Shown here piece by piece: positions 3,993-32,003 of a stretch of 46,694 nucleotides of DNA. Numbering within the stretch: position 1 is the stretch's first letter; every line of letters starts with the position of its first letter. Both the position numbers and the translations under genes were made by a program. Source of the stretch: Candidatus Scatosoma sp. (GTDB lineage Bacteria; Bacillota; Clostridia; Christensenellales; Borkfalkiaceae); assembly GCA_045532525.1 (NCBI GenBank), contig JAZSGC010000085.1:1-46694 (forward strand), in the 5' to 3' direction. The notes under the pieces are model-generated. The model did no database searches and had not been told where the DNA came from. It saw only the letters and a list, made by a program, of their open reading frames with translations.

Positions 3993-4004
3993 TGAGGATA
4001 TATT

Positions 4005-4960: not shown

Positions 4961-4971
4961 GTTTTTATCAT

Positions 4972-6687: not shown

Positions 6688-6855
6688 AACCTTACGTCTC
6701 CTTTCCCTAAATTATACCCTAATTTTACGAAATTGTAAATAAAAACGAGCAAAAAACGCTTTATTTTCTTCCTTAAATATGGTAAAATATAAAGCGGTAT
6801 TATCAAAAACCAAGAAAAAATAAAAATTCATATAGATTCAGGAGAATTTCAAACT

Positions 6856-8154: not shown

Positions 8155-8207
8155 TCGCCGAAAAGTAAAACTGCTTTTATTGCGAATTTTTGCAAACCTG
8201 TTTATAC

Positions 8208-8234
8208 CGACGCGCCCGATTTTTGGGCGCGTCG
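8208..8234 (+). other. GC-rich stem-loop after tig (weak terminator or processing signal)
   Basis: cgacgcgccc / gggcgcgtcg, a 10-bp perfect stem with loop gattttt. No U-tract follows it. Confidence 0.4.
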
Positions 8235-8270
8235 CAAATTCCTAATCCAACATAAGGACGATTATTAAAA

Positions 8271-8861: not shown

Positions 8862-8880
8862 TCCTTTCGTTTGAGTGTTG

Positions 8881-8919
8881 CGCGCAAATTCCCCTTCGGG
8901 TTTTTGCGCGTTTTCTTCC
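8881..8919 (+). terminator. Intrinsic terminator/attenuator between clpP and clpX
   Basis: cgcgcaaa (8881-8888) / tttgcgcg (8903-8910) with an inner ccc/ggg pairing, followed by ttttcttcc. Confidence 0.7.
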
Positions 8920-8927
8920 AAAACCCC

Positions 8928-8957
8928 AAAACGAGTGGGGCAGGTATGCGATGAACG
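8928..8957 (-). repeat. Dispersed repeat copy a (clpP-clpX spacer, inverted orientation)
   Basis: The plus strand reads aaaacgagtggggcaggtatgcgatgaacg. Confidence 0.8.
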
Positions 8958-9022
8958 AAAGTTTTTCAAGCTTTCACCCTTTATTTTCGACGCGCATATC
9001 TATAAAAATATGGAGTTTAATT

Positions 9023-10267
9023 ATGGCAAATAAAAATCAGCATTGTTCTTTTTGCGGAAAACCCAAAGAAGAAACCCGCCGCTTAATTACTGGCCCTGAC
9101 GGGACTTGTATTTGCGACGAGTGTGTGGATATCTGCAAATCTATGATAGACGAATGGTCGGAAGATAAGGAAAAGAAGAACAGCAAGGTTCCTTTAAAAA
9201 AGCCCGCGGAAATTAAGGCGGAGCTTGATAACTATATCGTCGGTCAGGATAAGGCGAAGCGCGTGCTTTCGGTTGCCGTTTACAACCATTATAAGCGTAT
9301 CAACGCTACCGTCGGCAAAAAGAAAAAGGACGACGACGGCGTGGAAATCGAAAAGAGCAACGTGCTTTTACTTGGGCCTACGGGCAGCGGCAAAACCCTG
9401 CTTGCTCGTACGCTGGCAAAAATTTTAAACGTACCTTTCGCCACTTCGGACGCGACCACGCTCACCGAAGCGGGCTACGTTGGGGAAGACGTTGAAAATA
9501 TTTTGTTGAAGCTTATCCAAAACGCCGATTACGACATCGAACGCGCACAACGCGGTATTATCTATATCGACGAAATCGATAAAATTGCAAGAAAGAGCGA
9601 AAACGTCTCTATCACGCGCGACGTATCGGGCGAAGGCGTACAACAAGCGCTTTTGAAAATTATCGAAAGCACGACGGCAAGCGTACCCCCGCAGGGTGGC
9701 AGAAAGCACCCTAATCAAGAGCTTTTGCGCATTGACACCACGAATATTTTGTTTATTTGCGGCGGTGCGTACGTGGGGCTTGACCGAATCGTTTCTTCGC
9801 GTAAGGACGATACGACGCTCGGCTTCGGCGGCAAGGTTCGCCTTGGCGCAAACGAAGCGGATTACTCCGTCTTAGACGACGTTAAACCGCAGGATTTAAC
9901 GAAATTTGGGCTTATCCCCGAATTTGTCGGTAGACTTCCTATCGTAGTAAATCTTGACCCGCTTGGCGAAGACGCGTTAGTGAAAATTTTAACCGAACCC
10001 AAAAACGCAATTATCAAGCAATATCAAAAGCTTGTCGGCTTCGACGGCGTAAAGCTGACGGTGGAAGACGACGCGGTGCGTGAAATTGCGCAAACAGCAA
10101 TTCGTTTAAAGACGGGCGCGCGCGGACTTCGTACAATTATCGAAAACGTAATGACGGACGTTATGTATAAAATCCCTTCCGAAGAAAACGTAGAAGAAGT
10201 TGTCATCACTAAGGAATGTTTAACGGACGGCGCAACGCCTAAGCTTGTCTATAAGCAATCCGCTTAA
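9023..10267 (+). CDS. clpX: ATP-dependent Clp protease ATP-binding subunit ClpX
   Basis: N-terminal C4 zinc finger 'CSFCGK...CDEC', Walker A 'GPTGSGKT' and 'IYIDEIDK'. I moved the start from the track ORF (8951) to ATG 9023, which has SD 'tggag'. Confidence 0.95.
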
Positions 10268-10286
10268 ACGGCGATTATAAATAGAA

Positions 10287-10313
10287 AACGACCCTTAAAA
10301 AGGGTCGTTTTTA
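10287..10313 (+). terminator. Intrinsic terminator after clpX
   Basis: aacgaccct / agggtcgtt stem with loop taaaa, followed by a T-run. Confidence 0.85.
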
Positions 10314-10315
10314 AT

Positions 10316-10345
10316 TTCATCGCATACCTGGGTGGGGTGTTTTTG
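10316..10345 (+). repeat. Dispersed repeat copy b (after the clpX terminator)
   Basis: ttcatcgcatacctgggtggggtgtttttg. Confidence 0.8.
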
Positions 10346-10349
10346 TTTT

Positions 10350-11009
10350 TTAGCCCATTTTGGGTGATTCGTTTTCCGTTTCCGCCGTATTTTCCGTTAC
10401 TGCCGTCGGCACGTAAATCCACTGTTCAGGACCTGTATCGCGCATTAAAATTTTCTTGTCTTTATACTTAAAAAGCAATAAGCCCGTCATATATAAATCG
10501 CCAACGCAGCCGCCGACGTGCATACCGAATAAAAAGGCAAACAGCACGTAAAGTACGGGATTAAAGAAGTAGAATACTACCGCCAGCGCCGCAAACAGCA
10601 CACCGAACACAGCAAAGGGGGCAATCAACGCAAGGAACGCCGTTTTACGGTAGGTGTATACGTCGGGAACGCCACAAAAGGCACAGCTCCAACTCAGCCC
10701 GAATTTTAACTTTTGCTTGGTCATTGCTTTATATACGACGCCGTGTACCAGCTCGTGTAAAATCATATAAGCAACAATAGAAAGCATCAGCACGACGCAA
10801 AAAAGAGCCACCCACAAAAGCTGCGACGGGCTTGCGTCGCGGAATTCACTCAAATTAATGTCCGCCGTAAAAACCACCAAAATAATTACGCCGATCAAAG
10901 GAATAAAGGAAAGTAAATTCATCACCAAGCCCACCTTTTTCGAGCGCGCGTCAATGTGAAAGGCTTCCTTATAGTTTTGCGGCAACGCCGTTTCGTAATT
11001 CTTTTTCAT
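10350..11009 (-). CDS. DUF3267-like membrane protein (putative zincin, HExxH)
   Basis: 219-aa ORF with about 5 TM helices and a 'HELVHG' motif. Confidence 0.75.
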   Translation of the reverse strand: MKKNYETALPQNYKEAFHIDARSKKVGLVMNLLSFIPLIGVIILVVFTADINLSEFRDASPSQLLWVALFCVVLMLSIVAYMILHELVHGVVYKAMTKQKLKFGLSWSCAFCGVPDVYTYRKTAFLALIAPFAVFGVLFAALAVVFYFFNPVLYVLFAFLFGMHVGGCVGDLYMTGLLLFKYKDKKILMRDTGPEQWIYVPTAVTENTAETENESPKMG

Positions 11010-11071
11010 ACAACCACCTTTATTGCTGTTTTTATATATGTAGTACGTTAAATTTATACCTATTTACAAAA

Positions 11072-11101
11072 TGAAAAAAGCTCCGAGCAAATCGGAGCTT
11101 T
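11072..11101 (-). terminator. Intrinsic terminator of rplU-rpmA
   Basis: agctccga / tcggagct stem with loop gcaaa. The minus strand reads a U-run after the stem. Confidence 0.85.
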
Positions 11102-11105
11102 TCGT

Positions 11106-11381
11106 TTACGCGTTGGGATAAACGCTTGCTTTTTTCTTGTCTTTGCCCATTCTTTCATACCGAACGATACCATCAACAAGCGCGAAGAGCGTATCGTCTT
11201 TACCGATAGCTACGTTCGTGCCGGGATGGATTTTCGTGCCTCTTTGACGAACGAGAATGTTACCAGCGAGAACTGCCTGGCCATCGCTGCGCTTCACGCC
11301 AAGTCTTTTCGCTTCGCTATCTCTACCGTTGTGAGAGGAACCGGTACCTTTTTTATGAGCGAATAAACTGATAAAAATCAT
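11106..11381 (-). CDS. rpmA: 50S ribosomal protein L27 with N-terminal propeptide
   Basis: 91-aa ORF with '[22 protein letters not shown]' and SD 'aaggag'. Seven extra N-terminal residues, 'MIFISLF', precede 'AHKKG'. Confidence 0.96.
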
Positions 11382-11443
11382 TTTTATTTCTCCTTAAAAT
11401 TCAAATTTCTTCCGCTTTCCGTTAGGAAAGACTTGCGTTGCAA

Positions 11444-11749
11444 TTAGAGTTCAATTTTTTCAACTTTAACTGCGGTGAAGGGCTGTCTGTGACCCTGCTT
11501 CTTACGTTCGTTCTTCTTAGCCTTGTACTTGAAGACGATGATTTTCTTCGCCTTGTCCTGCTTAACGACCGTAGCGGTAACCTTTGCGGATTCAACTTCC
11601 GCGCCCGTCTTAATACCGTTTTCGTCGGCAACCATCAGCACTTTGAAAGATACGGTTTCGCCTTCCGCAGCCGCGAGCTTTTCCACTCTAACTACGTCGC
11701 CTTCCGCAACCTTGTACTGCTTGTTCCCATTATCGATGATAGCGTACAT
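11444..11749 (-). CDS. rplU: 50S ribosomal protein L21
   Basis: '[20 protein letters not shown]...'. I trimmed the start to ATG 11749, which is preceded by SD 'ggagg'. Confidence 0.95.
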
Positions 11750-11894
11750 AAAAAGTTTTACCTCCTCTTTCCAGTCTCGAAGAATATCCAAGGCGCAGCA
11801 CATTTTTTACTTTCGGCAAAAAAATTGCTGACTTAAAAAGCCCGTTTCTATCGGCTCGACTATCAATATACCACATTCTTTCTTTATCCGTCAA
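11750..11894 (-). promoter_or_regulatory. rplU promoter plus ~110-nt leader with a terminator-like hairpin (possible L21-leader-type attenuator)
   Basis: On the minus strand: TTGACG (11889-11894), an 18-nt spacer, then TGgTATATT (-10 at 11865-11870). The leader contains gagccgatagaaacgggcttttt (about 11836-11858). I did not check this against a covariance model. Confidence 0.45.
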
Positions 11895-12002
11895 GCATTT
11901 TTGCTTGTTTTTTGATATTTTTTCGATAAAAAACGGATTTTTCACGCGCGCGTATATACAATAGAAAAAAGCCGCATACTGTTAAAAAGGAGACGAGAGA
12001 TT

Positions 12003-12449
12003 ATGGAAAATAGAGATATCAAACAAACGGAAGAAGCGCTTGCGGAAATTTATCGCAACGCACAGCTTGCCCTGCAATCCATTTCCGATATTTTACCCGA
12101 AACGGAAGACGGGGAGCTTCGTGCGGAGCTTACCGCCGAACACGAAGCCTACGAGCATTTCTCCGCAAAGGCACAAATGCTGGCAAAGGATAAGGGTTTG
12201 GAGTTAAAAGAGCCAAACCCGATGAAAAAAGCAATGATGTGGGGGTCTATCAAAATGAGTACGCTTGCCGATAATTCCCGTTCGCACATCGCGGATATGA
12301 TGGTACAAGGCACGGTAATGGGGATCACCGCGCTGCGTACGACGGCAAACGATTTATCCGACCGCGGCGACGAAAGCGTAAAAACTTTGCTTAAAGAAAT
12401 GATTGAAAGGGAAGAAGAATTTGAAAAGAAATGGAAATCCTTTTTATAA
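12003..12449 (+). CDS. Hypothetical helical acidic protein
   Basis: 148-aa ORF with SD 'aaggag'. No TM segment. I recognise no family. Confidence 0.7.
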   Translation: MENRDIKQTEEALAEIYRNAQLALQSISDILPETEDGELRAELTAEHEAYEHFSAKAQMLAKDKGLELKEPNPMKKAMMWGSIKMSTLADNSRSHIADMMVQGTVMGITALRTTANDLSDRGDESVKTLLKEMIEREEEFEKKWKSFL

Positions 12450-12487
12450 AAGTAATTGATTAAAACGGCTCTTATTTTTACCGTTTG

Positions 12488-12520
12488 AAAGCGCGGCTTT
12501 TTCGCCGCGCTTTTCCTTTG
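12488..12520 (+). terminator. Intrinsic terminator
   Basis: aaagcgcggc / gccgcgcttt stem with loop tttttc, followed by a T-rich tail. Confidence 0.85.
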
Positions 12521-12567
12521 CTTTATTCTCGACAATTTTCGCATTATTATCTTATTAAAATATAAAA

Positions 12568-12595
12568 TTCAACGCATACCTGCCCTACGTTTTTA
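12568..12595 (+). repeat. Dispersed repeat copy c1
   Basis: ttcaacgcatacctgccctacgttttta. Confidence 0.85.
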
Positions 12596-12598
12596 ATT

Positions 12599-12627
12599 TT
12601 CAACGCATACCTGCCTGCCACATTTTG
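12599..12627 (+). repeat. Dispersed repeat copy c2 (tandem to c1, 31-nt offset)
   Basis: ttcaacgcatacctgcctgccacattttg. Confidence 0.85.
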
Positions 12628-12666
12628 TTGTTCTATGAAAATGTAGTGAAAAATAGCCTTTCCCCC

Positions 12667-12703
12667 TTTACTTTTTTAAAAATTTATGTTATACTATAAC
12701 ATA
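12667..12703 (+). promoter_or_regulatory. holB promoter with the -10 inside a perfect 19-bp palindrome
   Basis: TTTACT (12667-12672), a 17-nt spacer, then TATACT (12690-12695). The palindrome TATGTTATA-C-TATAACATA spans 12685-12703. Confidence 0.55.
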
Positions 12704-12754
12704 GTTAATTGTTTTTAAGGGAATTTGAAGGTAAAAACGCAAAAAGGGGACGTT

Positions 12755-13723
12755 ATGCAGGCTCTTTTACAAGAAACGCAAGCCTATAAAATCGTGCAAA
12801 ATGAAAAACGGGAAAACCGTCTTTCACACGCCTATTTACTGCTGATGGACGACGGCAAAAATTTGCGTTCCGTGTTAAAAACCTTTGCCAAGCTCCTACT
12901 CGTTGGCGACGCACAGGACGAAGAAGCCCAGCGTATTTCTAAGCTTGTAGAAACGGAAAGCTTTTCCGATTGTCTGTTTTTCCCTACCGACGGTAAAAAA
13001 CTCACCGTTGAAGACGCCAACGCTATTCACGAAGAATGTACGTTAAGCCCTGTGGAGGGAGAGAAAAAGCTGTTCGTTTTAGGCGACTTTGCCGAAGCCA
13101 ACACCCAAACTCAAAACAAGCTGTTAAAGCTGCTGGAAGAACCGCCCAAGCACGTGCTTTTTTTACTGGGCGCAACCTCGGCTTTCCCCGTTTTAACTAC
13201 CGTTCTTTCCCGTACCAAAAAGCTGGAAATCCCCGCCTTTGATATACAAAAGGTAACGGAATGTCTTGCCCGCATTTACGGAAATAAATACGACGAAGAA
13301 ACGCTGCGTTTTTGTGCGGCGGCTTCGGAAGGCAACGTGGGCAACGCCCAAAATCTTTTGGAGGGCGGCCATTACAAAATGCTGACGGACAACGCGTTTT
13401 CGCTGCTGCTTTCCCCCCTTTACAAGCTCCCAACCGCGGTGAAAGCGATAGCCGAAACGAAATACCAAAGGGAACTGCTTTCTACCCTGCGCCTTATTTT
13501 TCGCGACGCGTTGCTTTTAAAATCGCAACCAAACGCCGAAAAATTTCTTTTGCTTCGTTCCGAAAAAGAAAAATTGCAGGAAGTGGCTACCGTGTACGCG
13601 TTGAACGCGCTCTTGTATGCGCAAAACGCGCTTTCGGACGCGGAAAAACAAGTTAAATTCAACGCAGTATTCCCGCAATGCATTGAAATTTGCATTGCAA
13701 AAATTCGTAAAGAAAATAAGTAA
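12755..13723 (+). CDS. holB: DNA polymerase III subunit delta'
   Basis: 'SHAYLL' and 'NKLLKLLEEPP' clamp-loader motifs. I chose the start at ATG 12755 (SD 'aagggga') rather than TTG 12725. Confidence 0.88.
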   Translation: MQALLQETQAYKIVQNEKRENRLSHAYLLLMDDGKNLRSVLKTFAKLLLVGDAQDEEAQRISKLVETESFSDCLFFPTDGKKLTVEDANAIHEECTLSPVEGEKKLFVLGDFAEANTQTQNKLLKLLEEPPKHVLFLLGATSAFPVLTTVLSRTKKLEIPAFDIQKVTECLARIYGNKYDEETLRFCAAASEGNVGNAQNLLEGGHYKMLTDNAFSLLLSPLYKLPTAVKAIAETKYQRELLSTLRLIFRDALLLKSQPNAEKFLLLRSEKEKLQEVATVYALNALLYAQNALSDAEKQVKFNAVFPQCIEICIAKIRKENK

Positions 13724-13763
13724 AACACTCGCGTAAAATCACGCGAAAACGCTAAGGAAGATT

Positions 13764-14630
13764 ATGATTAAAGTTGTAGGAATTAAATTTAAAACAGGCG
13801 GAAAGCTGTACTATTTTTCGCCTAAACAAGGAGATAAATACGAACGGAATATGCCCGTCGTGGTAGAAACTTCTCGCGGACTTGAATTCGCTTGGGTTGC
13901 CTACCCCGAAAAGCTTGTTCCCGACGACGAAGTCGTTCAGCCCTTAAAGCCTATCATTCGTATCGCAACGGAAAAGGACAAAGAATTTTACGAGGCTTGC
14001 GAAGCAAAACGTCCGCAAGCAATGCAGCTTTGCAAGGAAAAAATTGCGGCAAGGGAGTTGGATATGAAGCTGGTGGACTGCGAATACGCTTTCGACGGCA
14101 GCAAAATCGTGTTCTATTTCACTTCGGCAAATCGCGTGGACTTCCGCGAACTGGTCAAGGACCTTGCTTCCGCTTTTCACACCCGTATCGAGCTTCGCCA
14201 GGTCGGCACGCGCGACGAAGCCAAATATCTGGGCGGCATCGCGCCTTGCGGCAGAATTTGTTGCTGCGCAGGGAATATGCCCGAATTTAAAAAGGTTAGC
14301 GTGAAAATGGCAAAAACGCAAGGCTTATCGTTAAATCCCGGAAAAATCAGCGGTCTTTGCGGCAGATTGATGTGCTGTTTAAGCTACGAAAACGATTACT
14401 ATGCCGAAGCGTCGCTGAAAATGCCAAAAATCGGCTCGGAGGTCGGCACCCCCGAAGGTAAAGCCACCGTCGCTTCCGTCAATATGCTGAAAATGCAGGT
14501 CAAAGTAAAAATCGACGATAAAAACGGCGGGCTTATCTTTAAGGATTATCCCGTAGACGAGCTTCGTTTTAAGAGAAAAAATCAACCTGAACCCAAAGAA
14601 GAAAACGACGATGAAGACGAACTCGATTAA
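13764..14630 (+). CDS. ricT: PSP1-domain protein RicT/YaaT
   Basis: 288-aa ORF with a PSP1 C-terminal domain and a Cys cluster 'CGRICCC...CGRLMCC'. holB-yaaT adjacency matches Bacillus. Confidence 0.9.
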   Translation: MIKVVGIKFKTGGKLYYFSPKQGDKYERNMPVVVETSRGLEFAWVAYPEKLVPDDEVVQPLKPIIRIATEKDKEFYEACEAKRPQAMQLCKEKIAARELDMKLVDCEYAFDGSKIVFYFTSANRVDFRELVKDLASAFHTRIELRQVGTRDEAKYLGGIAPCGRICCCAGNMPEFKKVSVKMAKTQGLSLNPGKISGLCGRLMCCLSYENDYYAEASLKMPKIGSEVGTPEGKATVASVNMLKMQVKVKIDDKNGGLIFKDYPVDELRFKRKNQPEPKEENDDEDELD

Positions 14631-14678
14631 CGCCGTTTTTTGAAAAAAATAAGAAAACTTTCAAAGGAGATTTTGTTT

Positions 14679-15782
14679 ATGGAATCTACTACGGAAAATA
14701 CTCCCGTTGCAGCAACGCCTGTAACTCCCGCTCAGCCTGTTCAACCCACAACGCCGGTAGCTCCTGCGCAACCCGCAACGCCGATAGCTTCTGCGCAACC
14801 TGCACAACCCGCAACGCCGATAGCTCCTGCGCAACCTACGCAACCCGCAACGCCGGTAGCTCCTGCTCAGCCTGCGCAACCTGCGCCCGTGGCAGCACAA
14901 GCACCTACGGCTACGCCTGCACCTGTGACGGTAACGGAATCCGCTCCGCAAGAAGAATCCGCGGAAGGGGAAGAGGAAGCGCCCCCGAAAATTATTTTAA
15001 ACACGCAACGAATTTTAGACGACTGGAAAGACGAAAAAGGCAAAGTACTTGTTTTCTTTATGAATCTTATTAATGTCTTTGCTATTTTAGGCTCTATCGG
15101 TTTGTTCTTTACGGGTTTCCTGTTCTTAATCGGTATTTCCACCGCCATCGGATTTTTGGAGAGAATCCGTGCGATCCCGAATATCGAAACAATTTCTATC
15201 GTATTGCTGATTGCGGCTACCTGCGTGGCGATTTGGTGCGATTTCGTACATAAACTCACCCCTTACTTTAAGGCGTTTAGTATTGCAAAATGGTTAAAGG
15301 ACAACAGTATCGACCCCAAAGAAGTAATGAAAATTTACTTACAAACCAAGCGGGAAAACGAGCTGACGAAATATCAGCACGGAAAGGGCGGTATCCGCGT
15401 AGAACAATCGGATTTATCCCAAGCGGCTTTTATCCTTTTAAACGACGAGCATAAATCCATCTACAAAAAAGAGCTTGTATGGACGCTTTTGTTCTGGGTA
15501 TTTCTCTCGGCAATCAAAGTACTTTTCGTGTACTGTTTAAACGAAATCGTCAGCGGTGTTTGCTTACAAATCGCTTCAATGACGAAAGGAAAATTCGATT
15601 TTCTCAGTCTTCTTACCCTTTTGCGCGATCCCTTGTTCCTTGGTTCTATCGGCGGTTGGATTGTACTTGGTATCACGCAAGCCATCGTCCGTGCTTCCAT
15701 TGCGCACGTGAGAAACAAAAATCAGCAAAAGTGGGTAAAAGCGTTTATGAAGGACGATATGCCGTCTAAGGAATATTATTAA
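14679..15782 (+). CDS. Hypothetical membrane protein with an N-terminal Pro/Ala/Gln repeat region
   Basis: Start at ATG 14679 with SD 'aaggag'. About 95 aa of (A/T)TP(V/I)APAQPAQP repeats, then an acidic linker, then at least 5 TM helices. Confidence 0.75.
   Translation: MESTTENTPVAATPVTPAQPVQPTTPVAPAQPATPIASAQPAQPATPIAPAQPTQPATPVAPAQPAQPAPVAAQAPTATPAPVTVTESAPQEESAEGEEEAPPKIILNTQRILDDWKDEKGKVLVFFMNLINVFAILGSIGLFFTGFLFLIGISTAIGFLERIRAIPNIETISIVLLIAATCVAIWCDFVHKLTPYFKAFSIAKWLKDNSIDPKEVMKIYLQTKRENELTKYQHGKGGIRVEQSDLSQAAFILLNDEHKSIYKKELVWTLLFWVFLSAIKVLFVYCLNEIVSGVCLQIASMTKGKFDFLSLLTLLRDPLFLGSIGGWIVLGITQAIVRASIAHVRNKNQQKWVKAFMKDDMPSKEYY
14748..14882 (+). repeat. In-frame tandem repeat (36-nt unit x3 plus a degenerate 27-nt unit)
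   Basis: Units start at 14775, 14811 and 14847 (gcaacgccgRtagctYctgc...). They encode ATP(I/V)A(P/S)AQP(A/T)QP. Confidence 0.85.
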
Positions 15783-16587: not shown

Positions 16588-16616
16588 ATTATACCACACG
16601 CAAAAAAAAATAGCAA
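16588..16616 (-). promoter_or_regulatory. rsmG promoter giving a near-leaderless mRNA
   Basis: On the minus strand: TTGCTA (16611-16616), a 17-nt spacer, then TGgTATAAT (-10 at 16588-16593). Only 9 nt separate the -10 from ATG 16578, and there is no SD. Confidence 0.55.
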
Positions 16617-16645
16617 CCTATTTACGATAAAGTTTTCCACTCGAA

Positions 16646-16950
16646 AGTGGATAAGGTTGTCCACAATGTGTAAAACCCTGTTGATAAATGGGTATATAAA
16701 ATATTTTTTCACTTTTTTAGTTTTCCTATTTTCTGTTTTTTAGAAAGCGATAGAAAAATCTCTCAACAAATCCACAAATGCTCCACAAAAATATCCACCT
16801 AAAAAACAGGGGTTGTCCACGGCTTGCACCTTTCCGTTTTTTGCTTATATTTCCATACTTTTCCGTGTGTGAAAGGATGGGGTTGTCCACATTTCCACCC
16901 TGCCTACTACTATTACTTCTATTTTTATTTATTAAAATAAATTCTTCGTA
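16646..16950. promoter_or_regulatory. oriC-like module: DnaA boxes, GC spacer, DnaA-trio-like tract and AT-rich unwinding element
   Basis: Boxes AGTGGATAA 16646-54, TTGTCCACA 16657-65, TTGTCCACG 16813-21 and TTGTCCACA 16883-91, with ATTTCCACC 16891-99 abutting the last one. Next comes CCCTGCC, then CTA CTA CTA TTA CTT CTA (16904-16921), then a 23-nt pure A/T run (16921-16943). Confidence 0.7.
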
Positions 16951-17014
16951 TAAAAGCCAAATCGAATGAAGAAAAAAGTTTGAGGAAATTTGCAAAAAAA
17001 GTGGCAGTGTTGCC

Positions 17015-17042
17015 TTGACAAATTTTCCCTGTATGGTATAAT
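17015..17042 (+). promoter_or_regulatory. Promoter of the DUF1273 gene
   Basis: TTGACA (17015-17020), a 16-nt spacer, then TGgTATAAT (-10 at 17037-17042). Confidence 0.65.
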
Positions 17043-17072
17043 AAATTCGACCGTTTTTTTAAGGGAGCGACG

Positions 17073-17574: not shown

Positions 17575-17583
17575 TGTGGATAA
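17575..17583 (-). promoter_or_regulatory. Perfect DnaA box upstream of dnaN
   Basis: TGTGGATAA, the reverse complement of TTATCCACA. Confidence 0.6.
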
Positions 17584-19088: not shown

Positions 19089-19223
19089 ATGAAAAGAACC
19101 TATCAACCCAAAAAGAGACAGAGAAGCAAAGTACACGGTTTCCGCAAGAGAATGGCGACGACTGCCGGCAGAAAGGTTTTGAAGAGACGTAGAGCAAAGG
19201 GCAGAAAGAGACTTACCCACTAA
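19089..19223 (+). CDS. rpmH: 50S ribosomal protein L34
   Basis: 44 aa, '[44 protein letters not shown]', with SD 'aggag'. It falls below the ORF-track length cutoff. Confidence 0.97.
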
Positions 19224-19253
19224 TAGAAAATATTTAAAATAAAAAGAAAGACA

Positions 19254-19296
19254 AATTCCTTTCCTTTACCCAAAGGAGAGGAATTGCCGTTTTTTA
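19254..19296 (+). terminator. Terminator/attenuator between rpmH and rnpA
   Basis: aattcctttcc / ggagaggaatt stem with one mismatch, followed by gccgtttttt. Confidence 0.6.
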
Positions 19297-19339
19297 AATC
19301 AAAGGAAATCTTTTTAAGTTTTCCGATTTTTTTAAAAGA

Positions 19340-19657
19340 ATGAAATATTTCAGATTAAAAAAACAGGCGGATTTTCAGCGATTATTCCAAAAAGGAAAGC
19401 GCGCGTTTTCCCCTTCTTTGACCATCGTCTACCGTCCTTCGGATAAAATGACGATGGGGATTTCCGTAGGAAAACGCCACGGAAAAAGCGTTATGCGCAA
19501 CCGTATTAAAAGGTTGCTGCGCGAAGCGTTTCGCTCCGTACAGCCTTTGATGCAAGGCACGTATAGCGTTATTCTTATTCCTAAGGTGAGCGAAGAATAC
19601 GCGTTTAAAACTTTTGAGCAGCATTTACAATGGATGATCAAAAAAGAAAAACTGTAA
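19340..19657 (+). CDS. rnpA: Ribonuclease P protein component
   Basis: 105-aa basic protein with 'LKKQADFQRLF' and 'RNRIKRLLREAF' motifs. Its position after rpmH fits. Confidence 0.92.
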   Translation: MKYFRLKKQADFQRLFQKGKRAFSPSLTIVYRPSDKMTMGISVGKRHGKSVMRNRIKRLLREAFRSVQPLMQGTYSVILIPKVSEEYAFKTFEQHLQWMIKKEKL

Positions 19658-19956: not shown

Positions 19957-20037
19957 AAGCGGAGCGTTCCGTTTTTGATAAAAGCAAAGCCGAAAAATGA
20001 TAAAAGCGAAGCAGTTTTCTTCGCAAAAAGGTATATA

Positions 20038-22110
20038 ATGGGACTTTCAAATTTATTAGGTATATCCATCAATATATTTACGCAAACGTATACGGTGGAT
20101 ATCAATTTCATAGGGAAATTCATCGGGTTTTTGGTCGGTTTAGTCGGCGTCGGCTTCGGTGTTATTTTATTCTCGTTGGCGTTAAAGCTTGTTACCTTGC
20201 CTTTCGACGTGATACAAAGAAAGGCGATGCGCAAACAGAATATCCAAATGAAAGAAAATCAAGAGCGTATGGAAAAACTGCAAAAGCAGTACGCCAACGA
20301 TAAGGAGATGTATAACCAAAAGGTTATGGAAATGTACAAAGAGAACGGTATGTCGATGTTCTCTTCGTGCTTGCCTATGATTTTGTCGATGGTTATTTTC
20401 TTTATTGCCATCGGCGCGTTCAACTCCTATTCCGCATACGCAAACGTAGAAAACTATAACGATTTGGTCAGCGCGTACAACAGCGTGCTTTTGGACAAGG
20501 TTGCGGATACCGCGGACGTAGGCTGTGATTTTTCGGTAATCAGCGTAGAAGAAGTCAAAAATAAGAACGGCGAAATTACGGAATACGTATTCACCTATCA
20601 AGTAAAAGACGATACGCTTAGCAATGATAAGGTTTTGTATTATCAAGCAAAATACCACGAAAAAAATTTAGAGCTTGTAGAATTTAAAGCGGAAAACGAC
20701 GGCGTAGCAAGTATTCGTTATAAGAAAGACGGCGAAAACAATATTCCGTTGACAAGCGAAGAAGTAAGGCTGCTTTTAAGAAATAATTTAAAAGCGGAGT
20801 TGGAAGAAGAAGCCAACGCAGACGAAAAAATTACGAAAGCGGAAAGAAAGCAAATCAACGCGGCGTTGAAAGAAGCGGCAAAGTATGAAAAAACCTACTT
20901 CATCAACGACGAAAAAATAACGAGTTCGGTTACGGACGTAGACGTTTACGGTTATACCGTGCAGGTGCAAAAAATCTTCTCGCAGGAAGACGAAACGGAA
21001 GTTGTCGGTTACGAATTCGTTTACAGCGTTGCAAATAATAACACGTTTAACGGAGCTTTGCCTGTTATCAACTACACCGTTAAATATATCGAAAACGACC
21101 TTGAGCTGGTTAGCTACGATGAAACTAACCCTGCAAACAGCGTTCGCTATAAAAAAGACGGCGAAACTAAGGTTCCGTTGACGGAAGCGGACATAAAAGC
21201 GTATTTAAAATCCGATTTAAGTATTAAAGAATACGTGCGCGTAATCAATCCTGTAATCTCAGTATTACCAAAGGAAAACGACGGGTATCTTTTGTACCTG
21301 CAAGCTATCGAAGCGCAAAAGGCGTCTTTATTGAAGAAAAACCCCAACATTACGGCGGAAGCGTTGAGAAAATCCACGTACACGGGCTGTTTTGAAGACA
21401 TTGCGCAAACGGAAGTTGTTGCGGCGTATAAAGGCGGAATGAAATTCGACGGCTCGGGCAAATATACGGGCGTTGTAAATAAAACCAGCTTCCTTTGGAT
21501 TAAAAACGTTTGGGTAACGGACGCAATGTACAAAAATCCCGTTTTGGAATATAGGGATTTTGAAACGGCGATTGCGACCAAAAACGGTTGCTCCTGCTCG
21601 ACGACGAATAAAGCGAAGGATATTCCCGCGTATTCCAAAATCGGGTATAACACGGTAACGGAAAAGCTCGACAAGCAAAAAGACCAGTTTAACGGGTATT
21701 TCGTGCTTATTGCATTGTCAATCGGTACGATTTTATTGCAACAGTTTATTTCGATGCGTTCGCAAAAAGAACAGCAGAAATATTCGTCTGTGGACGGTCA
21801 GGGCGCAGGTCAGCAAAAGATGATGATGGTTATGATGACGGGTATGTTTGCGATTTTCTCGTTTATGTACAGCTCCGCGTTCTCCATCTACCTTATCGTA
21901 AGCAACCTGTTCTCGATGGGTTCTACGGTAATCATCAATAAAATCGTGGATAAATCCGTGGAAAAGAAAGAAGCGAAAGCCGCGGAAGAAAAATTTGAAA
22001 AGCGTTACGGCGGCAGAGTAGCGGCGGCGAAAGAAGCGGGCAAAAAGGCTGCGCAAGCAAGCAAAAATAAAAAATCCGTCGGCAAAAAAGACGAAAAGAA
22101 TAAAAAATGA
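20038..22110 (+). CDS. yidC: YidC/Oxa1-family membrane insertase with a ~370-aa extracytoplasmic insertion
   Basis: The YidC core is present: 'LPFDVIQRKAMRKQ...', a coiled C1 loop, 'NGMSMFSSCLPMILSMVIF', 'SFLWIKNVWVTD' and C-terminal TMs with a Lys-rich tail. ATG 20038 is assumed as the start. Confidence 0.85.
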   Translation: MGLSNLLGISINIFTQTYTVDINFIGKFIGFLVGLVGVGFGVILFSLALKLVTLPFDVIQRKAMRKQNIQMKENQERMEKLQKQYANDKEMYNQKVMEMYKENGMSMFSSCLPMILSMVIFFIAIGAFNSYSAYANVENYNDLVSAYNSVLLDKVADTADVGCDFSVISVEEVKNKNGEITEYVFTYQVKDDTLSNDKVLYYQAKYHEKNLELVEFKAENDGVASIRYKKDGENNIPLTSEEVRLLLRNNLKAELEEEANADEKITKAERKQINAALKEAAKYEKTYFINDEKITSSVTDVDVYGYTVQVQKIFSQEDETEVVGYEFVYSVANNNTFNGALPVINYTVKYIENDLELVSYDETNPANSVRYKKDGETKVPLTEADIKAYLKSDLSIKEYVRVINPVISVLPKENDGYLLYLQAIEAQKASLLKKNPNITAEALRKSTYTGCFEDIAQTEVVAAYKGGMKFDGSGKYTGVVNKTSFLWIKNVWVTDAMYKNPVLEYRDFETAIATKNGCSCSTTNKAKDIPAYSKIGYNTVTEKLDKQKDQFNGYFVLIALSIGTILLQQFISMRSQKEQQKYSSVDGQGAGQQKMMMVMMTGMFAIFSFMYSSAFSIYLIVSNLFSMGSTVIINKIVDKSVEKKEAKAAEEKFEKRYGGRVAAAKEAGKKAAQASKNKKSVGKKDEKNKK

Positions 22111-24773: not shown

Positions 24774-25499
24774 ATGTCGGTGACGATGTCTACACAACAG
24801 CTTTTGGCTGCGACTTGGTCGAATTATCTAATCGACGTGGTTATTTTACTCTTTATCGCGGGGCTAACGATATTGTGCGCAAAACGCGGGCTTATAGAGT
24901 GTATGTTCGATTTTGCGTCTACGCTCGTTTCCTTTATCGTGGCGATTTTGCTTGCTAAGCTGCTGATTTTTATCACAGGCGGGCTGTTTGGTTTTCAGGA
25001 CTGGCTGGGCGGTTCGTTCTCTAAGGTATTTATAAAAATCGATGGATTTGACGCAATTTTATCCGAAGACGGCGCAAAAAACGCTTTGTTGGACAAGAAT
25101 ATCGCGGGGGTTATCGCCAACCTTGCCGTGCGCTGGTTTGCCAAAGGAAAGGTTGCAAACGGAACGACGATTGCCGCGTTGCTTGGCAAAATTACAGCAA
25201 GACTGTTTACTTTATTGATTTTAAGCGTCATTCTTTTCTTTGCGGCAAAGCTCTTATTGCTCTTAACGAAAAAATTCTTGACGGAAATCATCGACCGTAT
25301 CACTCTTTTGGACGCAACGAATACCGCTCTTGGCGCGGTGGTTGGGTTCTCGCAAGCGTTGCTCATTGTCGGCGCGGTGTTGGCGCTGTTTGCCGTAATT
25401 CCCTCTCCGCCCATCGACAACTACCTTTCCAACTGCTTATTCTTAGGCTGGTTGTACGAAAATAATATTGTCGTAGCCTTGTTAGGGCTGCTGATTTAG
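24774..25499 (+). CDS. cvpA: CvpA-family membrane protein
   Basis: 241-aa ORF with SD 'aaggagg'. The N-terminus 'NYLIDVVILLFIAGLTILCAKRGLIE' is typical of CvpA. Confidence 0.8.
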   Translation: MSVTMSTQQLLAATWSNYLIDVVILLFIAGLTILCAKRGLIECMFDFASTLVSFIVAILLAKLLIFITGGLFGFQDWLGGSFSKVFIKIDGFDAILSEDGAKNALLDKNIAGVIANLAVRWFAKGKVANGTTIAALLGKITARLFTLLILSVILFFAAKLLLLLTKKFLTEIIDRITLLDATNTALGAVVGFSQALLIVGAVLALFAVIPSPPIDNYLSNCLFLGWLYENNIVVALLGLLI

Positions 25500-25569
25500 C
25501 AAAAATCGACGAAAAGGCATTAAAATAAGAGATACACAGCAACGATATTAGTTTGACGAAATTCAACAA

Positions 25570-25606
25570 AAAATCCGCTTTTTTGCAAGGCGGATTTTTC
25601 TTTTTA
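25570..25606 (+). terminator. Intrinsic terminator after cvpA
   Basis: aaaatccgc / gcggatttt stem followed by a T-run. Confidence 0.85.
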
Positions 25607-25640
25607 TGCGTTTTTCGGTGTATAATTTGCATAATCAAAA

Positions 25641-26136
25641 TGTGTATAACTGTGGATAATTTTCCGCGAAGTCAAGAAAAGAACGTTTGTTTGTGGATAA
25701 AACGAACATTTTGGCGTTATTTTACGATAAATATTTACATTTTTTCCCATAAATTTTTATTGGAGAAAAAGTTATCCACGAAAAATTGAGATGAAGCGTA
25801 TATCTAACATTTCGGGAAATGCGCAGGTTATCCACAGAAAAATCCCGTGATTTCGCGGTAAAATCGCGCAAAAGCGTTTGTTATTGCAAATGCATTTTAT
25901 CTATTCGGGTGAAGTTATACACAATTTACTGACTGTATGGGTGGACAACCTGTACTTATCCACATTTATACACAAATAAGGGCTTATGGCTGTTTTTTAT
26001 TATGCGGCTTAGGTTATTTTTCGACAGTTTTCAACAAGCGCAGACAAATTGCGACAAGGACAATTTTTCCGCATTGTGGATAAATTTTTAGAGATGGACA
26101 ACCGACCATACCCCTACGCGCATTTATTGTGGATAT
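25641..26136. promoter_or_regulatory. Dense DnaA-box cluster in non-coding DNA between convergent genes
   Basis: Five perfect TTATCCACA/TGTGGATAA boxes at 25651-59, 25692-700, 25828-36, 25956-64 and 26075-83. Five one-mismatch boxes at 25641-49, 25772-80, 25915-23, 25966-74 and 26128-36. Also GGTTGTCCAC-type sites at 25941-50 and 26094-26103, and an AT-rich stretch at 25720-25770. Confidence 0.8.
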
Positions 26137-26160
26137 TTATAGAACGGTGTAAAAAAGGCA

Positions 26161-27459
26161 TCAGCGCACGCCTTTAAACTGGACGTCAACTTCTAACACC
26201 GTATTGGAAAGCAGGGTGCTTTCGTAGGCGGAATAGGCGCGGTTGCCCGTTTTGCGAAGTCTATCGCGCAGGCTGAACACGTCGCAATCGAGCGCGCGGG
26301 TCTTTTCAAAAAGGCTGATGATTTCACCCGTCAACTTTTTTTGCGCCGCGGAAAATACGCCCGCGGGCACGTCCCCCGCGTCGGAAAGCTTATCAGCGGG
26401 CAGGGATTTGGAGTAATCCAAAAGCCCCGCAACGACGGTGAGTTGAATTTTTAAATTCGCCATTCCGTTTTTGGCGACGTGCAGCTTGATTTTCGGCGCG
26501 TTTTGCTTAAAGGAAAGGGTGCAGGTGGCGTCTTGTGTAGCAACGGAGTAGGGCGCAAGGCGAAGCTCGTTTAATACTGCATTGCAGGCAAACGTTTCTT
26601 CCGCGGTGAGTGTGCCGACCTTTTTTCCGTGTTTAAAAAGGGCGGTTTCGCCTGCGCTGAATACGGGTTTTTGCGCTTCTCCCCCTTTCTTGCCGCCGTT
26701 CCCCGATTGATTTTGCGAAGACTGCTCGTTGCCCTGCTGTCCCTTTTCTTGCTGACCACCGCTTTTTTCGTTTCCTTGTTTTTCTTCCTTGGGCGGGGAA
26801 GAATTTTCTTGCGGGGTTTGGTTGGGGGTACTTTCTCCGTCGGGTTCTTGTTGGTTTTGTAGCTTGACAATGGGCAAAAGTCCGCAAGCGTTGTCCGCAA
26901 AATATCCCATTGCAAAGGTACGGAGAGTGGACGTATACACCGTGCCGACCTGTTCTGCGTGGTGAGAAAGCACCTTTTGTATTGCGGCGGACGAAGAAGA
27001 ATCGACTAGCGCATCGGCATTAAGCACGTCTTTTGCCGTACCGTCGCAGGCGGCAACAAGGCAGTTATCGCTTAAATATTCGTCCAACAAAAAATAGTCC
27101 AGCGCGTCGAAAACGTTGTTTTTTACCGTTTCTTCGCCCAACAAAATTAAATTGCAAAACACGAGCTTGGGATACCAGCCTGTTTTGGCGTTGATTTCTT
27201 CAAAGGCTTCGGCAACCGTTTTGCCGCGGCTGACGATTTGTACGGCGTTGGCGGCGTTGCCTTGGTCGGACGGCTCGGGAATGGCAACCTGCGAAGTGAC
27301 GATGAAGTCTTCTCCGTCACGATCGATACCCGCCGCGATAATGATGGCGGTTTTTTGAACGTCTATCAGCCCGAAATCGTTAGAAAAAAATAAAAAGGTT
27401 AGAAACACGACGATTAAAAGGAAATATCGGACGGTGTTTCGGTTGTGTGTTCTATACAT
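26161..27459 (-). CDS. Spore germination protein, Ger(x)C family
   Basis: 432-aa ORF with an N-terminal hydrophobic anchor and Ger(x)C N- and C-terminal regions. It is interrupted by a ~60-aa Q/G/N/E/K-rich insert. Third gene of the ger operon. Confidence 0.85.
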   Translation of the reverse strand: MYRTHNRNTVRYFLLIVVFLTFLFFSNDFGLIDVQKTAIIIAAGIDRDGEDFIVTSQVAIPEPSDQGNAANAVQIVSRGKTVAEAFEEINAKTGWYPKLVFCNLILLGEETVKNNVFDALDYFLLDEYLSDNCLVAACDGTAKDVLNADALVDSSSSAAIQKVLSHHAEQVGTVYTSTLRTFAMGYFADNACGLLPIVKLQNQQEPDGESTPNQTPQENSSPPKEEKQGNEKSGGQQEKGQQGNEQSSQNQSGNGGKKGGEAQKPVFSAGETALFKHGKKVGTLTAEETFACNAVLNELRLAPYSVATQDATCTLSFKQNAPKIKLHVAKNGMANLKIQLTVVAGLLDYSKSLPADKLSDAGDVPAGVFSAAQKKLTGEIISLFEKTRALDCDVFSLRDRLRKTGNRAYSAYESTLLSNTVLEVDVQFKGVR

Positions 27460-30309: not shown

Positions 30310-30384
30310 GAAAACAGCGTGTGTGATTGCGGGGAAAAGTATGCGAAAAAACGGATAGCGCGGCGTTTTGCTTGGCGGTTGCTC

Positions 30385-30413
30385 TTGACAAGCGGCGCGG
30401 GATTTGTTATACT
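30385..30413 (+). promoter_or_regulatory. Promoter of the methyltransferase-rsmI unit
   Basis: TTGACA (30385-30390), a 17-nt spacer, then TATACT (30408-30413). It lies inside the long track ORF 30319.., which argues for the downstream start. Confidence 0.65.
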
Positions 30414-30486
30414 ATATTATAGGACGGCGCGGAAAAACGCGAAAGTGAAAAGTCGCGCACGTGTAAAAAAGGTTAGGTGGCAAGGC

Positions 30487-31179
30487 GTGGACGAAAAAAT
30501 CGTGCTTAGTGAAAACGAAGTTTTAGACGATATGCTGTTGGACGGATTAAAAATCGTGCAGGATACGCGATTGTATCGGTTTACGTCCGATTCCGTGCTG
30601 TTATCTCGTTTCGCAAAAGCGAAAAAGGGAGATAACGTTGCTGATTTTTGTGCGGGGAGCGGTATTGTTGCGTTTCATTTTTATGCCTTAAATAAAGCGG
30701 TTTCGGGGTTGCAATTTACTTTGTTTGAATTGCAGGAGGAGCTGTCGGCTTTATCGAAAAAGACGGCGATTTATAACGGCTTTGAAAACTTTACCTTTGA
30801 GCAGGGCAAGCTGCAAGACATAAAAAAAGAGTACAACGAGAAATTTTCGCTGGTGCTTTGCAATCCGCCTTACGAGCGCGGGGGCTTTGAAAACGATGAT
30901 TATGCAAAAGCCATTTGCCGCAAGGAATTGACGATAAATTTAAAGGAGATTGCTCGCGCGGCGGCGTTTGCTTTAAAATATGGCGGTCGGCTTTGTATGC
31001 TACACCGCGCGGATCGGCTTACGGAGGTTTGTTACACGCTTCACGACGTGGGGATAGAAGTGAAAAAAATCCAGTTTGTAGGGGGCAGGTGTGGATCGAA
31101 GCCCTATTTGGTGATGATTGAAGGGGTAAAAGGCGGAAAGCCCTGCAATGAAATTTTGCCCACGATTTGGAATAGTTAA
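30487..31179 (+). CDS. YabB/TrmN6-like SAM-dependent N6-adenine methyltransferase
   Basis: 'CNPPY' catalytic motif and 'DFCAGSG' SAM motif. GTG 30487 follows SD 'aggtgg'. Confidence 0.8.
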   Translation: MDEKIVLSENEVLDDMLLDGLKIVQDTRLYRFTSDSVLLSRFAKAKKGDNVADFCAGSGIVAFHFYALNKAVSGLQFTLFELQEELSALSKKTAIYNGFENFTFEQGKLQDIKKEYNEKFSLVLCNPPYERGGFENDDYAKAICRKELTINLKEIARAAAFALKYGGRLCMLHRADRLTEVCYTLHDVGIEVKKIQFVGGRCGSKPYLVMIEGVKGGKPCNEILPTIWNS

Positions 31180-31199
31180 TAAGAAAAACGGAGTAGAAT

Positions 31200-32003
31200 A
31201 TGGTTAGTTTTGTAGCAACGCCCATAGGGAATTTGAAGGATATCACCTTGCGCGCGTTGGAAACGTTAAAGGAAGCGGACGTGATTTTTTGTGAAGATAC
31301 GCGGCATACCATCAAGCTGTTAAACGCGTACGAAATCAAAAAACCGCTGTATGCTTGTCATAAATTCAATGAAAAGGAAGCGGCGGAAAAAATTCTTGCC
31401 GCGTCTCGCCGCGGGGAAAAGGTGGCGGTGGTTTCGGACGCGGGTACGCCCGTGGTTTCCGACCCCGGAAACGTCGTTTGCAAGGTGTTGCGTGAAGCGG
31501 GAGAGCCGTTCACACTCATTCCCGGCGCGTGCGCGTTTGTGGCGGCGTTGGTTTTATCTGCGTTGCCGGCGGGGCGGTTTGCGTTTATCGGTTTTTTACC
31601 TGAGAAAAAGAGTGAAAAGGCGGCGGTTTTGGAAAAATACAAGGACAGCGATTTGACGCTGGCGTTCCACTGTGCGCCGCAGGACGTCGACAAGGACGTA
31701 AAGGCGATGTACGAGATTTTTGGCGACAGAGCGGCGTGTGCCGTGCGCGAAATCAGTAAAATTCACGAAGAAGCGATACCTTTCCGGCTTTCGCAGGGCT
31801 TGGAAGGGGAAAAACGCGGGGAGTACGTGCTTGTCGTGGAAGGAGCGCAGGAGAAAGAATGCGCGTTAAATTCCCTTTCCGAAAAGGAACACATTCAGCA
31901 TTATATGTTGGCGGGGCTGGATAAAAAAGAAGCGTTAAAACGGGCTGCGAAAGACCGCGGTGTTTCTAAATCGGAGTTGTATCCGTTCTCCGTCGATTTA
32001 TAA
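31200..32003 (+). CDS. rsmI: 16S rRNA (cytidine1402-2'-O)-methyltransferase RsmI
   Basis: 'TPIGNLKDITLRALETLKEADVIFCEDTRHT' and 'VSDAGTPVVSDPG'. Confidence 0.93.
   Translation: MVSFVATPIGNLKDITLRALETLKEADVIFCEDTRHTIKLLNAYEIKKPLYACHKFNEKEAAEKILAASRRGEKVAVVSDAGTPVVSDPGNVVCKVLREAGEPFTLIPGACAFVAALVLSALPAGRFAFIGFLPEKKSEKAAVLEKYKDSDLTLAFHCAPQDVDKDVKAMYEIFGDRAACAVREISKIHEEAIPFRLSQGLEGEKRGEYVLVVEGAQEKECALNSLSEKEHIQHYMLAGLDKKEALKRAAKDRGVSKSELYPFSVDL

Follow-up and report, generated by a model that had tools for sequence, protein, structure and literature searches.

A conserved, promoter-free DnaA-box array near the dnaN-linked origin of Candidatus Scatosoma as a candidate DnaA sink

Introduction

What is the role of a dense array of DnaA boxes that lies several kilobases from the site where replication starts? 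The question is raised by contig JAZSGC010000085.1 of Candidatus Scatosoma sp. (assembly GCA_045532525.1; Bacillota, Clostridia, Christensenellales, Borkfalkiaceae), whose 46,694 nucleotides, analysed as a whole, we call the window. Two clusters of DnaA boxes stand out in it: cluster 1 (c1), upstream of dnaN, and cluster 2 (c2), separated from it by 8.7 kb and ten genes and located in a gap of 661 bp (25500-26160) where the convergent genes cvpA and gerXC both end. An earlier note on this DNA, which had put this gene-free gap at about 660 bp, hesitated between one half of a bipartite origin and a titration cluster of the type of the DnaA-box clusters (DBCs) of Bacillus subtilis or datA of Escherichia coli. 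Our analysis places the origin at c1 and indicates that c2 is very probably a functional DnaA assembly site, linked to the origin, that does not unwind. That c2 is a DBC/datA-like sink in the control circuit of c1, conserved and transcriptionally insulated, is the reading that we favour, with a probability of about 0.5.

Results

The box scan was performed over both strands of the window with TTATCCACA, allowing up to one mismatch, and yielded 32 boxes where 7.1 ± 2.5 were expected. Ten of these fall in c2. Five are perfect, at 25651, 25692 and 26075 on the minus strand and at 25828 and 25956 on the plus strand, and five carry one mismatch, at 25641 and 26128 (minus) and at 25772, 25915 and 25966 (plus), so that the count of five perfect and five imperfect boxes in both orientations within some 500 bp, made by the earlier note, is exact. 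Three of the mismatched boxes read TTATACACA, a form that work in B. subtilis counts as consensus (TTATNCACA) (PMC2533591). Of 200 first-order Markov simulations of the window, none gave a 500-bp span with more than three boxes, against the ten observed, and 3000 simulations with the composition of the c2 gap gave a mean of 0.21 boxes and a maximum of 3. More than one box is found in only two of the 15 intergenic gaps longer than 150 bp, namely the c2 gap with ten and the rsmG-ypsA gap with four.

Density was further expressed as the A value, that is, the summed affinity of four successive boxes divided by their mean spacing. With a cut-off of 0.3, this value singled out exactly the eight regions to which DnaA binds stably in B. 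subtilis (Ishikawa et al., PMC2533591). Only c1 (1.33) and c2 exceed 0.3 in the window, the highest value for c2 being 2.40 (25617-25659), with a value of up to 0.79 over 25626-25700. Among the c2 orthologues, ten of the 11 tested scored 0.33-1.5; in the remaining one (L009) no c2 region rose above 0.3.

Relatives were collected through a DnaN protein scan with one genome per GTDB species, which returned 24 loci. Of these, 23 come from uncultured gut Clostridia or from metagenome-assembled genomes (MAGs) of 'Candidatus Scatosoma', with dnaN 58-89% identical, and the last one is an outgroup, Lederbergia lenta, which has the canonical order with one set of boxes between the divergent rpmH and dnaA and another between dnaA and dnaN. 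Detection of c2 reached 10 kb to either side of dnaN, or relied on metagenome contigs. Within that reach c2 is present wherever the contig extends far enough; at one locus (L010), whose contig lacks the left flank, the 10 kb on the right of dnaN contain no c2. The earlier note had named absence from close relatives as the sign of chance accumulation or recent acquisition, and the conservation of c2 gives no such sign.

What is conserved is the layout. Box order, orientation and spacing are kept in at least 11 species-level relatives and in metagenome contigs, while the spacers have diverged: their lengths are kept and their sequences are not. In an alignment of nine species the majority fraction averages 0.82 in the box columns, of which 48 of 100 are invariant, as compared with 0.53 and 20 of 431 for the columns outside the boxes. 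Seven c2 boxes are deeply conserved (0.88-1.00), those at 25641, 25966 and 26128 are lineage-specific (0.37-0.64), and the one at 26075 is intermediate (0.78). Measured from GTGGACAACC, the invariant reference point at which a variant box lies on the minus strand (position 0), boxes on the plus strand stand at -166, -110, -26 and +15, and this geometry recurs almost to the base in distant metagenome contigs of Scatosoma type. Relatives included, c2 holds 10-15 boxes.

Is c2 then the site of unwinding? The cumulative GC-skew minimum of the window lies at 16963, inside c1 and 13 bp past a basal unwinding module, and therefore replication starts at c1; the minimum falls inside c1 in eight of ten genomes. 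This module, the one that had been described as incC-like and about 9 kb away, combines DnaA boxes, a GC spacer, DnaA-trios and an AT-rich DNA unwinding element (DUE) at 16881-16950, and closely resembles both the incC of L. lenta and the oriC2 of Clostridioides difficile, where the trio reads CACCTACTACTATTACTACTATGA (PMC7561715). A strict regular expression requiring at least four consecutive DnaA-trios, run on dnaN-upstream regions only, recovered the trio/GC-spacer module from the c1 of the window and from that of at least three relatives (L017, L020 and L021). Across relatives c1 holds 3-9 boxes together with the trio.

Of the four features of an unwinding origin, c2 has the box cluster and lacks the other three, which are trios, a conserved DUE and a skew switch. 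Neither of its tandem box pairs adjoins DnaA-trios or a GC-spacer module. The AT-rich stretch that had been pointed out at 25720-25770 does exist; it is not a conserved DUE, since in relatives the AT maximum shifts and the spacer is only 65-76% AT. Finally, GC skew keeps its sign across c2 (+0.106 to the left, +0.109 to the right), which lies in the right replichore. By these features c2 is not the unwinding site.

Perfect boxes are scarce in c1 of the window's subclade (0-2, with c2 at 4-10 kb) and more frequent (4-5) in a clade where c2 lies at about 14 kb. We considered that in relatives seeming to lack c2 the c1 region might be a fusion of c1 and c2, and rejected it: these relatives have the same c1 layout with better boxes, and in their clade c2 lies about 14 kb downstream, as L055 shows. 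Separately, a lone perfect DnaA box is found at 17575-17583, past the stop of ypsA and 169 bp upstream of dnaN, and may be a remnant of control of the dnaN promoter by DnaA.

Contrary to its internal layout, the location of c2 is variable. It stands between cvpA and gerXC in six relatives (L002, L004, L005, L008, L012 and L024). In L019 it follows queT and precedes ftsH, and in L020 it lies between yyaC and a MATE gene. Two others (L007, 3511-3926; L009, 4678-5105) have it across the origin, about 4-5 kb left of c1, flanked by gerXC and by the 3' end of rpmA-rplU. In a metagenome contig from a Scatosoma-type clade where c2 had at first seemed absent (L055), it follows cvpA upstream of ftsH; the dnaN start lies about 14.1 kb upstream of it, and c1 about 14.4 kb away. 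The comparison of distance and content that the earlier note had proposed thus gives 4-14.5 kb, on either side and in either orientation, with gerXC, rpmA, ftsH or a MATE gene as neighbours. A position within 15 kb of c1 is what was seen in the cases captured, and not an established rule.

We also asked if the orientation of c2 is tied to the direction of the fork, and this had to be rejected: in L012 the module is inverted in place (19175-19625), and L007 and L009 carry it in the opposite replichore with no change of absolute orientation. As the latter two loci differ from the window by an inversion spanning the origin, an unchanged absolute orientation implies a further flip of c2. An element that stays near c1, yet changes side, orientation, distance and neighbours, fits a function that depends on dosage or proximity and not on strict geometry. 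This leans towards the DBC-like reading rather than a rigid half-origin.

The elements of c2 and c1 are collected in Table 1. From left to right, c2 consists of a minus-strand tandem pair with a 10-bp step, whose inner box (25651-59) is conserved (0.88) and whose outer box (25641-49) is less so (0.64); 41 bp on, another minus-strand box; a spacer of about 70 bp that leans to AT; two plus-strand boxes 56 bp apart; some 87 bp on, a further plus-strand box and, 26 bp beyond it, the invariant GTGGACAACC (a minus-strand TTGTCCAC box); 15 bp past this, a plus-strand box that is tandem in some species; and, after about 65 bp, one to three copies of TTCGACA, with starts often 10 or 20 bp apart, and a final box. 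A 19-nt inverted repeat (25641-59 and 25956-74) brackets the core.

Table 1. Positions of the features of c2, its borders and c1 in the window
Feature	Position	Strand	Evidence or remark
c2, whole DnaA-box array, bracketed by two terminators	25641..26136	.	box counts, phylogenetic footprint, A 2.40
cvpA intrinsic terminator, 13-bp stem and U tract; insulates c2 on the left	25569..25599	+	-14.4 kcal/mol, z = -3.4
Tandem box pair TTATCCACAgTTATACACA, left arm of 19-nt inverted repeat	25641..25659	-	95% complementary to 25956-74
Perfect DnaA box (25692-25700) with invariant flank GAACGtttGTTTG	25681..25700	-	AAC + GTTTGTGGA invariant in nine species
AT-rich spacer, 82% AT	25720..25770	.	length of about 70 bp kept; sequence and AT peak not kept
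Conserved DnaA box TTATCCACg, 56 bp before next box	25772..25780	+	conservation 0.93
Conserved perfect DnaA box	25828..25836	+	conservation 0.95
Conserved DnaA box, TTATaCACA here, TTATCCACA in relatives	25915..25923	+	conservation 0.98
Invariant variant box GGTTGTCCAC, GTGGACAACC on plus strand; geometry reference point	25941..25950	-	conservation 1.00
Perfect box with tandem TTATACACA, right arm of inverted repeat	25956..25974	+	first box 0.98, second 0.53
Spo0A-box-like block: TGTCGAA at 26020-26, one-mismatch copies at 26030-36 and 26050-56	26020..26056	-	same position in relatives
Perfect DnaA box, position kept (0.78)	26075..26083	-	orientation differs in L005, L012, L007, L009
Peripheral one-mismatch box, non-conserved (0.37)	26128..26136	-	box scan and alignment
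Terminator-like hairpin with U6 at gerXC stop codon; insulates c2 on the right	26148..26175	-	-9.8 kcal/mol, weak z = -1.3
c1, oriC2/incC-like origin, between rsmG and ypsA-dnaN	16600..17072	+	boxes, trio module, GC skew, A 1.33
c1 basal unwinding module: GGTTGTCCACA-TTTCCACCC, GC spacer ctgc, DnaA-trios CTACTACTATTACTTCTA, AT-rich DUE	16881..16950	+

Two of these sequences extend beyond the box itself. The motif GGTTGTCCAC, which had been reported as shared between the clusters, does occur at the positions given for it (16655, 16811 and 16881 on the plus strand, 25941 on the minus strand, and a one-mismatch minus-strand copy at 26094); it is just a variant of the DnaA box, TTGTCCAC, with a GG flank. 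The 11-nt flank GAACGtttGTTTG (GAACGnnnGTTTG in the alignment) overlaps the box at 25692-25700 and is invariant in nine species. It resembles the Cheo/LexA box (GAAC-N4-GTTY), a motif that is rare in the window (only four copies), and could be the site of a second protein or an extended contact of DnaA.

The block near the right end of c2 carries TGTCGAA, the Spo0A '0A box' of Bacillus and Clostridium. The whole window has two copies of it against 7 expected, one of them in c2, where the block has successive starts 10 and 20 bp apart. Across 11 orthologues there are ten copies in 5.3 kb of c2 and 15 in 237 kb outside; this excess is due to the conservation of one site and not to independent events. 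The block, TTCGACA in the other reading, is retained in most relatives, and the same sequence is found among the DnaA boxes of the rpmH-dnaA region of L. lenta. As cited in PMC7561715, Spo0A reportedly binds 0A boxes in the B. subtilis oriC and blocks unwinding (Boonstra 2013). The conserved block suggests that phosphorylated Spo0A (Spo0A~P) may act at c2 too during sporulation.

Searches for other functions in c2 were negative. It has no conserved open reading frame (ORF), and the small ORFs of the gap (42-78 aa) were rejected as genes because cross-species peptide matches are short (12-44 residues), are spread over every frame and coincide with the DNA boxes. A promoter scan of c2 gave a signal at the level of shuffled sequence. 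In the window as a whole, the Rfam scan returned zero matches, no tRNA gene was found, and no parS site was found within two mismatches.

The genes around both clusters were assigned with Pfam. To the left of c1 the order is lon, engB, rqcH (minus strand), tig, clpP, clpX, holB, yaaT, an unknown gene and rsmG (minus). Between c1 and c2 come a YpsA-SLOG gene, dnaN, rpmH, rnpA, yidD, yidC, jag, queT and yyaC/DUF1256 (both minus) and cvpA (24774-25499, plus; Colicin_V). To the right of c2 stand the GerAC-type gene gerXC (26161-27459), gerXB and gerXA, all on the minus strand, then a methyltransferase gene, rsmI and further genes. Neither the CvpA nor the GerXC protein of the window had an identical entry on record. 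All 23 relatives have dnaN-rpmH-rnpA-yidD through to jag on one strand with c1 upstream. A tblastn search with the DnaA of L. lenta found no dnaA in the window, nor within 10 kb of dnaN in the 23 relatives (L001-L022 and L024). An origin between rsmG and (ypsA-)dnaN, with rpmH-rnpA-yidD-yidC-jag after dnaN and no dnaA within 10 kb of it, is unusual among Firmicutes, where the order rnpA-rpmH-dnaA-dnaN is regarded as conserved.

Other observations concern the surroundings of the origin. Most genes to the left of the origin (26-15782), namely lon, engB, tig, clpP, clpX, holB and yaaT, are on the plus strand and hence head-on to forks coming from c1, the GC skew of the left arm is only -0.03, and in L004 (2237-7443) tig-clpP-clpX lie on the opposite strand; together these suggest a recent inversion beside the origin in the window's lineage. 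The pairs holB-yaaT and yabB-like methyltransferase-rsmI are neighbours in B. subtilis. Here holB-yaaT (12725-14630) and methyltransferase-rsmI (30319-32003) are parted by the whole origin segment from rsmG to gerXA, as if this segment had been inserted between them. The YidC ORF (19975-22110) encodes 711 aa, far above the usual length; its best stretch for Pfam 60KD_IMP covers residues 60-151, and the rest is only partly similar in relatives. Lastly, the region 3200-4900 has a GC content of 0.32-0.38, against about 0.46, and two ORFs without Pfam match (3630-3992 and 4005-4895), and may be an acquired island.

The pattern GTGGACAACC-N5-6-TTRTCCAC was tried on metagenomes as a marker of c2 and rejected, most of its 120 matches being lone inverted box pairs in high-GC organisms. 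Given this lack of specificity, it provides no argument for a descent of c2 from oriC1 or from oriC2. In ten dnaA-linked contigs of other, higher-GC lineages (L049, L052, L066, L071, L077, L096, L101, L108, L135 and L144) the pair lies just downstream of dnaA and, where dnaN is present, in the dnaA-dnaN spacer; it appears to be a widespread feature of origins. Two unrelated metagenome contigs with no recognisable origin genes nearby carry extremely dense arrays, with 19 DnaA boxes in 375 bp (L026, 575-949) and 14 in 220 bp (L085, 1015-1235), which may be DnaA-titrating or replication elements of phages or plasmids.

Discussion

How could c2 act on an origin that it does not open? In the sink reading, its seven deeply conserved high-affinity boxes, whose order and spacing are fixed, are predicted to give stable binding of a DnaA oligomer and would keep DnaA off the weak boxes of c1, in the manner of the oriC-proximal DBCs of B. 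subtilis or of datA. Since c2 is only 4-15 kb from the origin, it would be duplicated within seconds of firing, and this early duplication would double the sink and discourage re-initiation. During sporulation Spo0A~P would also act there. The occupancy of c2 by DnaA, the negative sign of its effect and the binding of Spo0A are all things that we infer from sequence.

Among the closest known systems are the DBCs. B. subtilis has six of them outside the origin (gcp-ydiF, thdF-jag, yydA-yycS, ywcI-vpr, ywlC-ywlB and yqeG-sda) (PMC3245932, PMC2533591). Most are near oriC, and deletion of all six leads to early initiation. Their restraint on initiation tolerates changes of position, and what a reintroduced DBC achieves is mostly a matter of gene dosage, in other words of how near to oriC it stands (PMC3245932). 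Like them, c2 is intergenic and oriC-proximal, has near-consensus boxes and an A value above 0.3, and is devoid of an unwinding element. Its position echoes that of thdF-jag, a few kilobases from oriC and beyond the rpmH-jag operon, and gcp-ydiF also sits between convergent genes (PMC2533591). L. lenta has a small box cluster too, upstream of trmE and about 4.5 kb from the rpmH-dnaA cluster. On the other hand, c2 differs from the B. subtilis clusters in its number of boxes (10-15 against 4-8), in a geometry fixed over a family-level clade, in its Spo0A-box-like block and in a host without dnaA within 10 kb of the origin, and no sequence homology between them has been shown. If it belongs with the DBCs, c2 would be a variant: larger, architecturally fixed, with Spo0A-type boxes, promoter-free and next to an origin unlinked from dnaA.

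More distant parallels exist. In Streptomyces an extra box cluster near oriC reportedly reduces initiation (Smulczyk-Krawczyszyn et al. 2006); the likeness to c2 is in the extra boxes near oriC, in a different phylum and a different context of box consensus. The datA locus of E. coli is replicated soon after initiation. It uses IHF, in place of which Firmicutes use HBsu, stimulates the hydrolysis of DnaA-ATP and lies hundreds of kilobases from oriC, and it has no homology to c2; the parallel is a functional analogy only, and no IHF-type site is claimed for c2. As summarised in PMC3245932, datA consists of non-origin, high-affinity DnaA boxes and lowers the potential for initiation.

Several observations weigh against a sink. 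The layout of c2 is kept more strictly and more deeply than has been reported for the DBCs of B. subtilis, which look species-specific apart from a few (PMC3245932), and this hints at a specific machine and not at a passive sink. The number of boxes is nearer to that of clostridial oriC1 (9-19) than to that of the DBCs. With only 0-2 perfect boxes in the window's subclade, c1 might depend on c2, and in C. difficile oriC2 failed to melt in vitro without oriC1 (PMC7561715). Finally, the dnaA of this clade was not located in the window or at the 23 dnaN loci, and a separate oriC1-type cluster beside dnaA is possible.

These same observations feed the strongest alternative, a serious rival although the less probable one: c2 would be a detached oriC1 half of incA/B type, with a positive role, nucleating DnaA on its high-affinity boxes and looping over 4-15 kb to help load the weak boxes and trios of c1. 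Box numbers do mirror those of clostridial origins, in which oriC1 has 9-19 boxes and no trio and oriC2 has 5-9 boxes with a trio and a DUE, both being needed for melting in vitro in C. difficile (PMC7561715); c2 is likewise rich in boxes, without trio, and paired with a trio-bearing c1. Spo0A-type boxes are interspersed in c2 as Spo0A boxes are among the DnaA boxes of oriC1 in Bacillaceae (L. lenta; Boonstra 2013, as far as it is cited in PMC7561715). Moreover, c2 has remained less than 15 kb from c1 through several rearrangements; neither the window nor the 23 MAG loci have dnaA, and hence a canonical oriC1, within 10 kb of dnaN; and in B. subtilis oriC1 and oriC2 loop together, oriC1 being possibly an enhancer (PMC13220808). 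The scarcity of perfect boxes in c1 where c2 is at 4-10 kb, and their greater number (4-5) where it is at about 14 kb, would also fit, although this is a single phylogenetic contrast. Against a detached half, canonical oriC1 lies between rpmH and dnaA, about 1.4 kb from oriC2, and holds the dnaA promoter; the known bipartite halves are about 1.3-1.5 kb apart with dnaA between them, and no bipartite origin is known to vary this much in spacing, side and orientation. In contrast, c2 is found here between cvpA and gerXC with no promoter role, 4-15 kb from c1, at a distance, side and orientation that vary and with dnaA elsewhere, where it may have its own oriC1. In addition, c1 is already equipped with a full box array and an unwinding module. 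Taken to its end, this alternative describes an origin that has been pulled apart, with dnaA gone, c1 left beside dnaN and c2 as a free-standing, enhancer-like module that reaches c1 through DnaA looping and receives input from Spo0A and perhaps LexA, a scenario that is possible and that we hold to be the less probable one. Between the two options of the earlier note, our results therefore support a selected cluster whose variable distance, side and orientation lean to a DBC, while the numbers of boxes and the absence of dnaA keep a split origin alive.

An improbable third explanation is that c2 is a DnaA- and Spo0A-dependent control region for the transcription of a neighbour or of an unannotated small gene or RNA. 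Several DBCs of B. subtilis do regulate adjacent genes (PMC3245932), c2 lies upstream of ftsH in four loci (L019, L027, L036 and L040) or of the MATE gene in L020, and a TATAAT-like block precedes the 0A boxes in six of nine species. Yet in the window, as in eight or more relatives, gene ends converge on c2 and a terminator stands on each side, the downstream gene varies by lineage, the module is inverted in L012, and it has neither a conserved ORF nor an Rfam family nor a promoter signal above shuffle. That no promoter is needed in the gap, as had been proposed, holds in this genome. Less probable still is a second, independent unwinding origin (dual oriC), which the dense boxes and the 82% AT stretch of this genome could evoke: the trio/GC-spacer module is missing beside both tandem pairs, the AT peak is not fixed, and the skew switches at c1 and has the same sign on both sides of c2. 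Chance accumulation, recent acquisition or the decaying relic of a former dnaA promoter region, for which the only support is that the window and its relatives have no dnaA within 10 kb of dnaN, is effectively refuted by a layout that at least 11 species share amid randomised spacers, even at a dnaN identity as low as 58%, and by simulations that never gave more than three boxes.

The favoured reading of c2 as a DnaA sink, and its main competitor, touch on a broader matter, as the contribution of oriC1/incAB or of DBCs to initiation in Firmicutes is unsettled, in part because in model species oriC1, at 1.4 kb from where the DNA unwinds, is intertwined with the dnaA promoter. For pipelines that predict origins, the densest cluster of boxes is here not the origin, and dnaA is no landmark in these Clostridia. 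If the origin has truly been pulled apart, oriC1 would be able to serve replication without dnaA autoregulation and without tight spacing. In either case c2, a promoter-free array of fixed layout, insulated by terminators, that has been moved and flipped in genomes with no dnaA within 10 kb of the origin, offers a clean substrate for the question of sink versus enhancer.

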